64,000 nt of DNA from Eledone cirrhosa (taxonomy: Eukaryota), in NCBI GenBank assembly GCA_964016885.1, contig OZ024743.1, positions 13,826,001 to 13,890,000 of the forward strand, given 5' to 3'. The position numbers and the translations under genes were made by a program. Positions 12,619 to 54,305 of the stretch are shown piece after piece (positions within the stretch are counted from its first letter, which is position 1; each line of letters begins with the position of its first letter). The notes beneath the pieces are model-generated. The model did no database searches and was not told the DNA's origin. It saw only the letters and a list, made by a program, of their open reading frames with translations.

Positions 12619-13891
12619 ACTATTAATAATGAGTTCAAAACTCAGGCAGTCCTTTACAATGAAATAGCTCAAAGAAAGAAGTATTTCTGAGCCGTGTAAT
12701 ACAAGTTAATATAAATTAATATATTTGATAAACACAAATACCAACATATCCGTGTTTGTATTGTAAATGACTAAGTTAGCTAGATTGAAAAATACTAATT
12801 ATAATAATACAGTTTGCCTGTCTCGATTTAAAATGATAAATCAATAAAAAAAAAAGCATATTGACAAATGATTAATAGTATCACTGCTCCTTATGTAGAG
12901 CTAAGTTTAGCCCCATATAAACGGCTGTTATTTCTAGCAGCACGAGTATGCGGCAGCTAGATACTGGATGTGTGAAAAACCATGTGCGTTAAACAGTCTT
13001 TTTAAATATTTTGAAGTGAAACATACCAATGTTTTCTGGTGCTTGCTAAGGAGATCTAAATGCGGTATTTTTTCACTTTTTCATTTTTCGGACTTATTTG
13101 GATTTAAAGGTTTAAACCTGTCTACGGAACAGGTTTGATTTTGAAATTTAAATTTGTCCAAGCACCATGGCCATTTGCCAATATGCTTTGTTTTTATTGA
13201 TTTATTATTTTAAATTGAGACAGGCAAACTGTACTATTATAATTTGTATTTTTCAATCTAGCTAACTTAGTCATTTACAATACAAACAAGGATATGTTGG
13301 TATTTGTGTTTATCAAATATATTAATTTATATTAACTTGTATTACACGGCTCAGAAATACTTCTTTCTTTGAGCTATTTCATTGTAAAGGACTGCCTGAG
13401 TTTTGAACTCATTATTAATAGTATCACTGCTCCTTATGTAGAGCTAACTTTAGCCCCATATAAACGGCTGTTATTTCTAGCAGCACGAGTATGCGGCAGC
13501 TAGACACTGGATAACCATGTGCGAAAAACCATGTGCGTTAAACAGTCTTTTAAAATATTTTGAAGTGAAACATACCAATGTTTTCAGGTGCTTGCTAAGG
13601 AGATCTAAATGCGGTATTTTTTCACTTTTTCATTTTTCGAAACTTATTTGGATTTTAAGGTTTAAACCTGTCTACGGAACAGGTTTGATTTTGAAATTTA
13701 AATTTGTCCAAGCACCACGGACATTTGCCAATATGCTTTGTTTTTATTGATTTATTATTTTAAATCGAGACAGGCAAACTGTATTATTATAATTAGTATT
13801 TTTCAATCTAGCTAACTTAGTCATTTACAATACAAACACGGATATGTTGGTATTTGTGTTGATCAATTATATTAATTTATATTAACTTGTA
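12619..13891. mobile_element. PLE-terminus-derived element, family D: ~250-bp arm with tail plus ~1.9 tandem ~545-bp units in the opposite orientation
   Basis: 12619-12870 is the reverse complement of ~13170-13420. 12871-13413 recurs from 13414 to 13891. Flanked by (TA)n. Unit encodes a WILRFKPVYGTGL stretch like a GIY-YIG C-terminus (W-I-x-K...GLN in the 22.6 kb copy). Confidence 0.7.
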
Positions 13892-13950
13892 TATATATAT
13901 ATATATATATATATATATATATATATATATATATATATATATATATATAT

Positions 13951-14234
13951 GTGTAGAAGTTACATTTAATTTATTGGGATACAACAAGCAAATATTTTTA
14001 TAACTGATATAAAGCACTCAACAAAGTATTGGAGTGAAAATACGATATATTAACACATCTTCCAACAGATATGGTCGCATTCTTTAAGGGTATGTCAATA
14101 TTTATTTATAAAACTGATCTATATTATATTTTATCTGATGAAAGCGCAATATAATTTGACTTGGTATCCTTGAAATATGTATAATGACATAAATATGGTT
14201 TAATAAATATAGTTTCCATTTGATAATATATCAT
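13951..14234. mobile_element. PLE pLTR fragment, family C (tail on minus strand, inverted HHR-bearing arm)
   Basis: Homologous to 18074-18498 and 49632-49895. Lies between (TA)n tracts. Confidence 0.75.
14127..14191 (+). ncRNA. Type I hammerhead ribozyme (family C)
   Basis: tattttat CTGATGA aag..ctt GAAA t atgt ATA atgacata. Stem I has one mismatch. Confidence 0.7.
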
Positions 14235-14495
14235 ATATATATATATATATATATATATATATATATATATATATATATATAGTTATATATAGTTATATAT
14301 ATATATAGTTATATATATACATATATATATATATATATATATATATATATATATATATATATATATATATATATATATATATATATATATATATATATAT
14401 ATATAGTTATATATATATATATATATATAGTTATATATATATATATATATATATATATATATATAGTTATATAAATATATATATATATAGTTATA

Positions 14496-51494: not shown

Positions 51495-53030
51495 CATTTT
51501 AAATTTATATTTAAACGTTGAGTTCAATCTATGTCTGCAGCAGCTGAATAAATTGTTCCTTAGGTTCAGGGAATTTTTGGGCTTTAATATTAAGAATATT
51601 TCCTCTATACAAAGATCACAATTTTCTGAAGAGGAGTTAAACGGAGTAGCTTATGAAATAATATTCCAAAGCAACGAATATTTAACGTTCTTTAATTTGA
51701 GGTCCCATAATAAGCTAGATAGAGAAGTTGAAGATTTTTTGTTTAGATGTGTAAAAGAAATTTTATGATTATTGAAACGGGATTTAAAATCTGTGGATTT
51801 TATCCTACATAATTAAATGAATTTAAATTAGTTTTTACATTACAATTATATACTATATTTTTAGCTAAACAATTGTTATTTAACGGACAGTTAGATTTAT
51901 TTCTACAGTTAAATTTATCAAATTGGATATTACTTGGGTTATTAGTGGTATTTTGGTTATGTTTTAAATATTTATTATTAATTCTATTAATATTTTGCGC
52001 TAAATCTTTGGTGGATGGATAAGTTAATTTTATAGTATGTCTATTAAAAATTGAGTAATATCTATGTGTTCTAGGTAAGCATTTGTCAAGAGCTTTAAAG
52101 AATAGTTTAGCAATAGGGGTTTTAATATTTAATGAGAAAGGAGGAGTAAACCATAATATATTCCTAGTTCTATTTCTTTTTTTCGTTTTCCGAAATATTG
52201 TAAGGTTTTCTATTATAGTTGTTAACATTTTTAAAATTGTTAAAATTGTTAAGATTATGGTTAGTTATTATATTATTATTATCAATGTATTTAATTTTAT
52301 TTCTATATCCAGCTCTAGCTAACGCTTCGTTGTAATAATGTGCTTTATCATCAAATATATTCTTATTAGCTGCAATTCTAGAAATGCGTTGCTGTTCAGA
52401 ATTCACTATAGTATTTTTAACGGATCTGGGGTGATTAGAGTTAAAATTAACGTAGTTTAAGTTCTCGTTTAGTTTGTGAAATGGATAATGAAGACATGTG
52501 TTAAGGTTTAATGTTACATCTAGAAAGTTAACTATTTTATGGTTATTCTCTATTTCTACTTTTAGATTAAGGTAATTAAAGAATTGTATAATTTCTTTTC
52601 TTTTCCTATTTAATTCACAGTTATTATTTTCGATATGTAAAAGCATGTCGTCACGATATAAACCTCCGGTCACCTCAGGTATTTTCCTATGTAGAGAATT
52701 ATTTATAAAGAGGCCCACAAGATCCGTTACCTTTGCGGAATCGGGTGATCCCATAGTTATATTAAAGTTATTGTTTCTATCTGCTCTAGTCCAGAGTTGG
52801 TTATTAAATTCTATTAATGTTTTCCGTGACGATAATATAATGTGCATTTCATTACTAGTTAAGTCTGTATGTTTAAGTGCCTAAGTTAGTGCTTTATTAA
52901 GTAGATTGGGAGTGATGGATAAGTAATAATTAGCAATATCCAATTGAATAAACTTATTATTATAGTTATATTTAATTTCCTTAGACCAATCGATAACTTC
53001 ACTAATAAGTTATCTACAGTGATTTAATGC
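51495..53030 (-). pseudogene. 5'-truncated, frameshifted Naiad-type PLE RT + GIY-YIG
   Basis: ITMGSPDSA, GGLYRDD, VNFLDVTL, SNHP, WFTPPFS, NCRNKSNCPLNNNC, YVG, C-terminal CCRH. Confidence 0.88.
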
Positions 53031-53859
53031 TTATTTTCATTGATCATTTGCTCCAGGAACTTGTTGAGTGCTCTAAATCAGCTATAAACATTTATACCCT
53101 TTTCTAATTATTTATTTATTATTTGTCGTATTCCCAACTTTTTATTTTCATATATATATATAACATTTATGTATTTTCTTATATATATATGTGTGTGTGT
53201 ATGTATGTTTATGTATGTGATTATATATATATATATTGTTTTTAAAGTTAAACAAGGTTCATATGAATACATCTAAGAATGAGTTTTACACACATACATA
53301 TGTGTGTGTATGTATTTGTATGTATGTGTTTGTGTATATGTATGTATATATATGTGTATATATATATATATATATATATATATATATATATATATATATA
53401 TATATATATATGTATATATGTATATATGTATATATGTGTGTGTGTATGTATATGTGTATGTGTATGTATGTCTATATGTATATGTATATGTATGTGTATG
53501 TGTGTATGTATTTATTTTTACGTATGTATGTGTATGTGCAATTGTGTGTATTGCTTACCACGTGTGTTAGTTCATTTATTTGTTGCCTGTATCACTGTCA
53601 ACTTTATAATCATTTTTATATTCATTTTTATTCTTATGTGACGGTATTTATTTTTTTTTTCTTATAATTATTTGTGTGTGCGTATGTACGTGTGTGTACA
53701 TATATCTATATTTGTGATTGCATATGTATGCGTGTATATATGTGTGTATGTATGTGTGTGTATGTACGTGTGTATATATGTATGATTGTGTGTGTGTATG
53801 TATATATATATACATATATATATATATATATATGTATATATATATATATATATATATAT

Positions 53860-54305
53860 GCATGTGTGTGTGTGTGTGCGTGTTTGTGTATTTGTGTGTA
53901 TGTGTATGTATGGATATGTTGATATATATGTGTGTATGTATGTATGTGTATATGTATGTGTGTGTATGTGTGTGTGTATGTGTGCGTATATATATGTGTA
54001 TGTATATATGTGTGCGTATGTAATTGTGTGTGGGGGGGCGTGTGTGCATGTGTGTTTATTTTACCTTTCCTTCTTCCTTTTTCAGCCTCACTTTCATATA
54101 GATTATTTTTTTGTTTTTAAAATCCAATGTCAATAAAGACAAAGATTTTTTCATTCTGATGATTGAAAGCAACATTTGTCTGCTTTTAAGAAACCACTGG
54201 TCAATGAAATAATTGCCTTATGTTGTTTATTACATAACTATTAAGCTCTGTAACCTATAAAGAGCACTCTTTTTTCCTGGACCTTTCTGACGGAATTACT
54301 TCTTA
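53860..54305 (+). mobile_element. Family I element, forward arm plus tail
   Basis: Contains CTGATGATTGAAAGCA..TGCT (HHR-like, no stem II). Tail TTAAGCTCTGTAACCTATAAAGAGCAC. Confidence 0.7.

Follow-up and report, generated by a model that had tools for sequence, protein, structure and literature searches.

A pair of small hairpins, each a few bases past one of the two fixed ends, is shared by the Hydra-type Penelope elements (PLEs) of this genome and by dozens of families recovered from marine samples. The window, by which we mean the whole stretch of 64,000 nt of the Eledone cirrhosa contig OZ024743.1 that was analysed, carries many copies of it. The motif is a bulged hairpin composed of NCTC, an upper stem with a 2-nt bulge on the 3' side (TT, TC or TA), GAGN' and, usually, ACT. 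Two such hairpins are found per element, in the order hammerhead, site 1, hairpin 1, site 2, hairpin 2, ATG, and the "tail" of the Hydra clade is the stretch from site 1 to site 2. The initial annotation had recognised the outer stem, which is real, and had missed the bulge, the upper stem and the second hairpin of each element. A literature search found no description of the motif. The main text of Craig et al. 2021 (PMC8557442) does not describe it; the word "hairpin" is absent there, and the passages with "stem" or "loop" concern hammerheads.

The autonomous element at 39.9 kb (family H) is, by domain order and diagnostic motifs, a member of the Hydra clade, for which Craig et al. list a C-terminal GIY-YIG, an RWK-type motif, DKT, CxCX5C, and CxxC and CxH in the EN domain (PMC8557442). 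Its 811-aa ORF has RWRA at position 37, DKT at 115, YRDD at 346, CNCRNKANC at 671, GIY-YIG at 692-707, CRLC at 769 and CNH at 797; CCHH is absent from it as judged by eye, and Pfam returned no family for it. The best 150 of 33,788 candidates for the protein of this family are at 96-100% amino acid identity. The element had been annotated as a Naiad, a name which does not hold, since Naiad has an N-terminal GIY-YIG and no canonical hammerhead, while here the RT comes first, the GIY-YIG is C-terminal and hammerheads are present. In common with the Hydra clade (PMC8557442) are the hammerhead in the pLTR, the insertion preference for (TA)n, partial tandem and inverted copies and a tail at one end. 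The join described earlier at 39.78 kb is genuine; it is, however, that of site 2 and hairpin 2, with site 1 and hairpin 1 of the same element at 45118-45206. The tail, reported as 30-40 bp in PLEs (PMC8557442), reaches up to 138 nt in H (site 1 at 45118, site 2 at 45256). In the minimum free energy fold of the isolated fragment the upper stem of H hairpin 2 is not formed in the proposed register.

Features of the window related to the hairpin pair (positions in the window; strand as assigned)
Feature	Position	Strand	Details
D, non-coding 549-bp tandem unit	12619..13889	+	left site 2, right site 1; hairpin 1 13349-13374, hairpin 2 13429-13444; without hammerhead core
C-type insertion	13950..14232	-	hairpin 14016-14035
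A, short insertion	14490..14595	+	hairpin 14521-14544
623-bp tandem unit, apparently non-coding	14750..15570	-	known from window copy only; hairpin 1 GCTC/GAGC 14822-14847, 15445-15470; hairpin 2 TCTC/GAGA 15265-15365
F end	15571..16309	-	hairpin 1 15650-15718, 61-nt insert
F, second copy	16854-17170		hairpin 16949-17017
M, inverted insertion	17789..18044	-	601-bp non-coding unit; hairpin 1 17819-17841
C, inverted insertion	18073..18497	+	hammerhead per arm (18311+, 18172-); hairpin 1 18417-18436
A, inverted insertion	21615..21804	+	hairpin 21733-21756
D, diverged inverted insertion	22439..23190	+	
A, inverted insertion	24920..25123	-	hairpin 24970-24993
H-like, diverged inverted insertion	26445..28804	.	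left short site-2 arm; right long ORF-bearing site-1 arm
A, inverted insertion	31421..31610	+	left site 1, right site 2; hairpin 1 31539-31562; assigned as truncated ends of 3.5-kb autonomous Hydra family
K, inverted insertion	33918..34251	-	hairpin 1 33955-33990
J, inverted insertion	34592..34772	+	hairpin 34713-34732, 1-nt bulge
A, inverted insertion	38883..39017	+	hairpin 38946-38969
H, autonomous Hydra-clade PLE	39738..45256	+	42-nt 5' pLTR stub, hairpin 2, ORF, long 3' UTR, hammerhead, site 1, hairpin 1, site 2
H, hairpin 2	39786..39899	+	GCTC CTA...TAG TT GAGC, 106-nt insert; 6 nt past site 2 (39779), 29 nt before ATG
H, 811-aa ORF	39929..42364	+	N-terminal RT, C-terminal GIY-YIG; RWRA, DKT, MGSSDS, YRDD, CxCX5C, CxxC, CxH
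H, type I hammerhead	44908..45056	+	very long stem II
H, hairpin 1	45126..45206	+	ACTC TGTA...TACA TT GAGT; 7 nt past site 1 (45118)
B, inverted insertion	45276..45453	+	hairpin 1 45392-45410; assigned as ends of autonomous Hydra family
N, inverted insertion	45576..46760	+	~535-bp non-coding unit, hammerhead core; left site 2 with (TC)n, right site 1
N, hairpins	46234-46257, 46350-46370		hairpin 1 GTTC/GAAC; hairpin 2 with T-T closing mismatch
C, 5'-truncated autonomous copy	49631..53040	-	broken ORF 52847-51800; hammerhead 49819; hairpin 1 49694-49713
C-like tail	53042..53149	+	hairpin 53050-53069, G-T closing pair; abuts truncated C ORF
I end	54140..54303	+	hammerhead 54156; site 1 at 54238; hairpin 54245-54265; tail to site 2

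Between 12.6 and 54.5 kb of the window RCTC N8-20 GAGY has 27 matches, against a mean of 4.0 (maximum 9) in 60 dinucleotide shuffles. The stems quoted earlier for families A, B, C, D, I and J and at 17.8 and 53.05 kb are all there. Those at 15.7 and 33.96 kb exist too, but in minus-strand elements and, at 15.7 kb, with a 61-nt insert, and the one at 46.35 kb proved to be the mismatched hairpin 2 of N, whose hairpin 1 is GTTC/GAAC.

The proposed tie between hairpin and insertion end was borne out in a genome sample of 1.064 Mb, made up of the window and 100 stretches of 10 kb taken at even spacing. Of 66 TA-bounded inverted-repeat islands, 61 had the structure arm-arm-tail, and in 42 of these 61 the motif lay within 35 nt of the arm end (at 2-10 nt in 37), compared to 1.3 for shuffled tails (maximum 5 of 300), 6 for reverse-complemented tails and 83/3000 for random 150-mers; the 42 islands are non-independent copies of about 16-18 families counted by eye. 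Mapped ends fall 6-9 nt 5' of the hairpin stem at 17 of 18 sites in 11 families; in family J the modal end is 12 nt from the stem. The position of the site is not dictated by TA homology, because four junctions (B1, F1, M1 and M2) carry TG or TT, not TA, in the element; at B1, just 2/16 ends use a TATA that lies 12 nt upstream. A hammerhead core within 230 nt of site 1 was present in H (39/40), C (52/63), I (36/37), B (17/20) and J (7/16) and was found in neither A (0/46) nor F (0/46), A having a degenerate U3/A8 core by eye. A stem belonging to the hammerhead itself was ruled out, as hairpin 1 lies 46-84 nt beyond the hammerhead GAAA and families D and M have no hammerhead core.

RNAalifold returned, unprompted, a 4-bp stem, a 2-nt bulge and a 3-bp upper stem. 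The initial annotation would have been contradicted by a stem lacking covariation or positional conservation; in addition to the constant end distance, 98.2% of the alignment cells are paired, 51 of them via double change, exceeding 500 of 500 shuffles. Held-out hairpins were 97.9% paired in an alignment fitted to the model, and the register with a bulge of 2 gave a mean of 2.43 pairs versus 0.57+/-0.13 in shuffled sequences.

Hydra-like loci were also picked from metagenomes by their RT protein alone, giving 27 families with a hammerhead-to-ATG leader. Two hairpins are found in 24 of the 27, one in two and none in one, with compensatory changes present. Hairpin 2 lies mostly 15-42 nt 5' of the ATG, and the spacing between the two hairpins, which approximates the tail length, is 55-83 nt. 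In these families the 4.5 kb of leader hold 50 motif matches and the 50.5 kb of ORF none. A search model derived from 33 hairpins gave 92 matches in 46 of 58 other loci, covering 28 families outside the seed; 88 of them are in the leader or the 3' region and none is within the ORF. Locus L165 has a single hairpin, and in L134, L155 and L171, where flanks are present, the model search gave no match. Nine of 14 untruncated metagenome ends lie 0-6 nt before a hairpin, and the other five do not fit. Among the six new Hydra consensi of Craig et al. (PMC8557442) the motif is visible by eye in three (Hydra-2_Amil, Hydra-1_Ajap, where it occurs twice, and Hydra-2_Ajap). As all autonomous carriers share ancestry, presence of the hairpin alone is partly due to descent. 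A TA-targeting Neptune-like PLE with fixed ends and a tail lacks the motif, and the signal is thus not needed by PLEs generally.

The families had been described as unrelated, yet A, B, C and the 39.9 kb family have ORFs that are 40-53% identical. A, B and C represent truncated termini of autonomous Hydra elements that are related to one another, and they have a coding partner in cis: the tail end reads through into a Hydra ORF in 18/25 loci of A and 16/20 of B, among copies selected for reading through, and for C, in L245 and relatives, as far as a Hydra ATG. In family B, site 2 is fixed and hairpin 2 is reduced and non-canonical (GCAC/GTGC, no bulge). The earlier term "non-coding parasites" therefore fails for most families, A, B and C among them; D, M, N and, apparently, the 623-bp unit are non-coding. 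D, M and N are tandem non-coding units with PLE-type site 1 and site 2 ends, as expected of non-autonomous PLEs. Their longest ATG ORFs are 77 aa in D, 36 aa in M and 13 aa in the 423 nt of N tested. No hammerhead core was found in D or M, which are about 70% alike in part, and 26 of 37 N copies have one. Both hairpins are retained in all three and in the 623-bp unit, and outside the hairpin pair no clear similarity links D, M and N to the eight autonomous references tested; the pair appears to be the common licence of the non-coding units.

Inverted insertions almost always join one site 1 end and one site 2 end. This was so in 31 of 31 genuine family-seeded inverted insertions of the unselected sample, and in 9/9 for D, 5/5 distinct for M and 11/12 for N, when at least half of the inverted insertions would be same-site under independent end choice. 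Two exceptions exist, a genuine 2/2 insertion (L455) and an A-like island with the same site at both ends (L192). An apparent "2/2" in the seeded count was an artefact of the 18-nt seed, and L352/L353, with many TA tracts between them, were counted as separate insertions. Single-end counts for D, M and N, inflated by AT-rich seeds, were discarded. At N site 2 the (TA)n is preceded by (TC)4-31 in 15 of 18 ends, whereas none of the 22 site-1 ends has such a repeat and among 2916 background tracts 86 do; the repeat matches the UCUC at N site 2, and slippage at a priming site would fit. Nine TC matches at B site 2 were discarded as probable read-through sequence.

The reading that we favour, with some reserve, is that each hairpin binds the RT-endonuclease of the element on the RNA and positions an internal RT start on a nicked (TA)n target. 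The protein, once bound to the hairpin, would set the first copied base at a measured distance of 6-9 nt; ends without a tail would come from initiation at site 1 and tailed ends from initiation at site 2. Inverted insertions would arise by twin priming, each site serving to prime one of the two target strands, probably while two protein units hold a single RNA, and the two truncated cDNAs would be joined via 0-8 nt of microhomology. Non-coding units, because both hairpins are kept in them, would be moved in trans. For the Poseidon PAc element Frangieh et al. 2024 (PMC11167929) showed in vitro that two internal RT starts bound the tail, that a nearby cis RNA element is required, and that both target strands are cut and extended; by analogy, the two internal starts of PAc fit initiation at site 1 and site 2. 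The PAc starts lie inside an AC-rich stem loop within the ORF, whereas the Hydra hairpins lie 3' of each site, and the main text of that paper holds neither a duplicated clade-conserved element 3' of each site nor a rule of site 1 plus site 2.

Alternatively, the hairpin may act as DNA, the GIY-YIG domain recognising it in single-stranded or extruded cDNA, cutting 6-9 nt away and so releasing the site 1 and site 2 ends from a tandem intermediate. One cut per site would also yield the observed pairing, tails were ascribed to EN-mediated resolution by Craig et al. (PMC8557442), ssDNA hairpins are recognised, through both their sequence and their structure, by the GIY-YIG Ssn nucleases of bacteria (PMC11893778), and earlier work, in the form in which it is cited in PMC11167929, found the Penelope tail to be required for EN recognition of plasmid DNA. 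The strand test, comparing G-U with A-C pairs as a guide to RNA or DNA and to sense or antisense, gave 8:1 in alignment A2, but 5:3 over all 49 metagenome hairpins. We nevertheless consider such DNA cutting unlikely, given that the template-matching (TC)n solely at N site 2 is more easily obtained by priming and that in the only PLE assayed in vitro the RT starts at the tail ends (PMC11167929). Still less probable is that the hairpins direct RNA processing, the transcript being cut just 5' of each and the RT priming conventionally from the new 3' ends. The fixed distance from a structured element would agree with it, as would the fact that PLE transcripts are tandem and already hammerhead-processed; against it, Poseidon starts internally on unprocessed RNA (PMC11167929), the conserved core seems very small for a ribozyme, and an Rfam scan of the window had no ribozyme among the best 150 matches listed, only sub-threshold miRNA-like matches on microsatellites and palindromes.

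Self-priming has been proposed for PLE inverted repeats (PMC3846280), and a single cDNA from site 2 could fold back, with hairpin 1 as a stop signal, like a telomerase template boundary, ending the return strand at site 1. The site-1 ends of A, 17 in inverted insertions and none single, would suit this model. It requires, however, a site-2 arm that is always longer, and in 49 resolved junctions of 73 the longer arm was the site-1 arm in 21, the site-2 arm in 16 and neither in 12. The site-2 arm begins within the tail in L484 and L451, D has single-ended site-1 insertions (L324, L327, L330 and L333), and hairpin 2 is left unexplained; the arm lengths in particular largely refute the model, to which we give very little credence. 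Just as improbable in our view is that the hairpins serve RNP assembly, export, translation or a promoter and that nearby ends are set by TA homology. The closeness of hairpin 2 to the ATG and the TA at the junction of most sites speak for it; against it are the non-coding units, in which both hairpins persist with unchanged spacing, the four sites without TA and the rarely used TATA at B1.

Returning to internal starts positioned by the hairpins, a bolder version is possible, and we hold it only tentatively. Two protein units on hairpins 1 and 2 of one RNA would prime both (TA)n strands 6-9 nt upstream, RT stutter would add telomerase-like dinucleotide repeats before processive synthesis, and a two-hairpin cassette of ~120 nt would suffice to license any RNA for microsatellite insertion, thereby feeding microsatellite growth. 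The empty-site search gave candidates for 6 of 175 insertions; as the one clean site was already (TA)29, RT synthesis of TA tracts is not claimed.

In L1 twin priming two primers on opposite target strands lead to an inverted insertion; there, the internal position of the second priming varies, and the resulting two pieces are without overlap. The two Hydra sites, in contrast, are fixed, and the same upstream sequence is copied into each of the two cDNAs. The PLE RT is the sister group of telomerase RT, and in telomerase a structured RNA element registers the template, with a boundary helix 5' of the template that stops copying. The Hydra hairpin is instead 3' of the start; the likeness is in the template-registering element and the possible addition of short repeats at the start, which, given the sister-group relationship, bear on telomerase origins.

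The origin of the PLE tail and the inverted pLTRs was stated as open by Craig et al. (PMC8557442), and a small covarying element, one per start site, in many animal families and their non-coding passengers offers a testable answer. What sets the two internal starts seen in PAc was left unsaid (PMC11167929), and the hairpin pair is a candidate. It also provides a rule for annotating ends and for assigning orphan non-coding repeats to the Hydra clade, and a short cassette for microsatellite-targeted insertion could have interest as a tool. Non-LTR retrozymes and non-autonomous PLEs (bioRxiv 10.64898/2026.07.22.740005; MRC1 in PMC8557442) are likewise short tandem non-coding units for which mobilisation by PLEs is presumed; N resembles retrozymes in its hammerhead core, and D and M differ from them in having none. 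In one case (L467) an M unit is joined directly to the end of a Hydra ORF.

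The insertion ends of these elements, which read in the order hammerhead, site 1, hairpin 1, site 2, hairpin 2 and ATG, lie 6-9 nt 5' of a bulged hairpin at 17/18 sites. At the modal ends the end-to-stem distances in nt (site 1/site 2) are 8/6 in family A, 6/9 in B, 7/8 in C, 9/7 in D, 7/6-7 in H (the autonomous family of the 39.9 kb ORF), 6/7 in M and 7/8 in N; they are 6 in I, 7 in F, 6 in K2 (a second mode) and 12 in J (second mode 8), and no ends were obtained for the K1 site. The element carries TG or TT, not TA, at four sites, and the exceptions are hairpin 2 of B, which is reduced, hairpin 2 of N, with a closing mismatch, and J. 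Among untruncated metagenome ends, 9/14 stop 0-6 nt before the hairpin, counted to the last matching base.

The stems quoted in the initial annotation are present in the window and are more frequent there than by chance (27 versus a shuffled mean of 4.0, maximum 9). A sample free of motif selection was made of the window and 100 stretches of 10 kb taken at even spacing, 1.064 Mb in all, from which all islands between (TA)5+ tracts having an end that recurs as reverse complement were collected. The arm-arm-tail layout is found in 61/66 islands; the bulged motif is at most 35 nt from the arm end in 42 of these 61 and at 2-10 nt in 37 (controls: shuffled 1.3, reverse complement 6, random 2.8%). 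The 42 are non-independent copies of, by eye, about 16-18 families; of the 19 motif-less islands, six were judged by eye to belong to motif families in mutated form and the remainder to be other elements.

Covariation was analysed on 27/49 metagenome hairpins (those of inner length 11-16, after removal of three near-duplicates) together with six window hairpins. Their RNAalifold consensus has a stem of 4 bp, a bulge of 2 nt on the 3' side and an upper stem of 3 bp. Pairing is kept in 98.2% of cells with 51 double changes, exceeding 500/500 shuffles, which disregard kinship, and every slid register. The hairpins had been selected on their CTC/GAG core, which shows no covariation in this set; the evidence is located in the closing pair (GC 25, AU 3, UA 3) and the upper stem (first pair UA 17, CG 15). 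The G-U:A-C ratio, taken as an indicator of the folding strand, is 8:1 in the aligned set and 5:3 over all 49 metagenome hairpins. A covariance model from the 33 hairpins gave 92 matches in 46/58 other loci, 88 of them in the leader or 3' region and none within the ORF, with 97.9% pairing in the model-fitted alignment. Core variants in this genome include GTTC/GAAC (N, locus L211) and ATTC/GAGT.

The 39.9 kb ORF, with RT first, GIY-YIG last and RWRA, DKT, CxCX5C, CxxC and CxH present, had been labelled Naiad; domain order and motifs fit the Hydra clade of PMC8557442 instead. It was aligned with 49 of its 89 relatives. From the best 80 of 373 confirmed metagenome hits, 78 loci were fetched by protein only (60 families at 80% RT identity), and in 27 families a hammerhead lies no more than 330 nt upstream of the ORF. 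By a strict pattern, which has no match in 50.5 kb of ORF in the metagenome families, 24 of these carry two hairpins, two carry one and one none, with 46-84 nt from GAAA to hairpin 1, 55-83 nt between hairpins and 5-42 nt from hairpin 2 to the first ATG. In the accessible supplement of PMC8557442 the motif is seen by eye in 3/6 new Hydra consensi (coral Amil-2, sea cucumber Ajap-1, twice, and Ajap-2), partly in a copepod one and not clearly in two. Five 9-mer forms of its 3' half occur seven times in that whole supplement, where line breaks may conceal more; four lie in these Hydra UTRs, and the other three seem to fall within coding sequence of Naiad or Chlamys. We judge the duplicated bulged hairpin genuine: a cis element that these known retroelements carry clade-wide. 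The motif is absent from the tail of L201, a TA-targeting PLE of this genome, which may have its own signal in place of the hairpin.

The families had been called unrelated, which the 40-53% mutual identity of the A, B, C and H proteins contradicts. Hammerheads precede the arm end and are oriented towards the tail, so the arms are pLTR 3' ends. The claim of non-coding families stands for D (tandem unit 549 bp), M (601 bp), N (~535 bp) and apparently a fourth, 623-bp unit, and fails for A, B and C. Read-through past the A tail end was matched by pattern at 318 places versus 0 for the control, with a Hydra ORF following in 18/25 fetched loci; B has 121 such places (ORF in 16/20 loci), and in C read-through reaches ATG and ORF. 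At F, I, J and K loci Hydra ORF pieces are often nearby, a proximity judged at the level of the locus. Against eight autonomous references D, M and N showed no clear similarity save AT-rich patches and one D-like match in a K locus. H is young and abundant (unit 5.5 kb, join at 45256|39780) despite its inflated loops, which therefore tolerate large inserts.

All 31 family-seeded inverted insertions of the motif-unselected sample pair site 1 with site 2, where independent ends would give a same-site share of at least 50%. The 1.064 Mb also contain one A-like same-site island; targeted loci gave D 9/9, M 5/5 distinct and N 11/12, with a true 2/2 insertion at L455 (N). The break in most inverted insertions of A falls 45-65 nt before site 1, within a degenerate hammerhead. 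This lies ~120 nt before site 1 (L269-L293), with a poor stem III and a UUGAGAA/UUGAUAA core in which U3-A8 replaces C3-G8. (TC)n occurs at 15/18 N site-2 ends versus 0/22 at site 1 (background 2.9%), and (CA)n at 13/37 I site-2 ends versus 0/19 (background 3.9%; L334-L363). We read these runs as slippage at initiation, the alternative being targeting of compound microsatellites; possibly synthesis at the start is reiterative, as in telomerase.

We consider it rather probable that each RNA hairpin sets the RT at a point 6-9 nt upstream of it, with one of the two sites used on each target strand. The RT protein would bind the hairpin in the RNA phase, two protein units would load, and non-coding units would be mobilised in trans. 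That the endonuclease instead cuts a DNA hairpin seems unlikely, and RNA cleavage at the hairpins more unlikely still. Fold-back of a single cDNA with a stop signal is very improbable: among 73 inverted insertions (targeted loci and a few copies from the window's own duplicate included), 49 have a resolved centre, with the site-1 arm longer in 21, the site-2 arm in 16 and equal arms in 12, so either arm can be longer, which fits two cDNAs. Centre junctions mostly show 0-8 nt overlap or few extra bases. An unrelated role of the hairpins is given equally little weight.

One-end tails and inverted pLTRs are in print (PMC8557442), as are two internal starts and a stem loop at the start in the Poseidon element PAc (PMC11167929) and pLTR sufficiency in trans. 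In literature outside most subscription papers and Repbase Reports, the accessible parts of PMC8557442, PMC11167929, PMC3846280, PMC13282606, PMC11893778 and the retrozyme preprint among it, no description was found of a conserved bulged hairpin that occurs twice, 3' of each end, or of the site 1 plus site 2 rule, though stem-loop Figs S1-S2 of PMC11167929 may bear on novelty. The hairpin element, apparently undescribed, brings an open question of mechanism within direct reach of experiment.

Further features of the window and of other loci
Position	Strand	Feature
649-9457	+	Non-LTR family, RT (PF00078), C-terminal nuclease-like region; tandem or partial copies; presumably HERO/NeSL-type
55607-59620	-	Second such non-LTR family, likewise
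14.75-15.57 kb		623-bp unit
23660-23730	-	Tail, degenerate I-like hairpin 23689-23721; not in initial annotation
37058-37168	-	Tail, hairpin 37117-37153; not in initial annotation
28867-29560		Palindromic element, ends GCTCTAC.../...GTAGAGC, more MITE-like
29790-30460		Decayed Hydra-like EN coding fragment, another family (by eye)
31639-31700; L201 (~4.3 kb)	- (L201)	Abundant PLE: C-terminal EN, Neptune-like linker, hammerhead core; tail 46-61 nt, overlaps ORF start
44908-45056; 45126-45206; 39786-39899		Inflated RNA elements of H: hammerhead stem II ~120 nt, hairpin inserts 73 and 106 nt
46310-46341; L444-L463		(TC)4-31 between N site 2 and (TA)n
L467:1250-2200	-	M unit fused directly to Hydra ORF end at AAG microhomology, resembling a template switch of passenger with autonomous RNA
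At least 13-54 kb		Repeated, inverted, near-identical, ~0.6 Mb away (G000:C4:14.47-14.52 Mb); segmental or assembly duplicate
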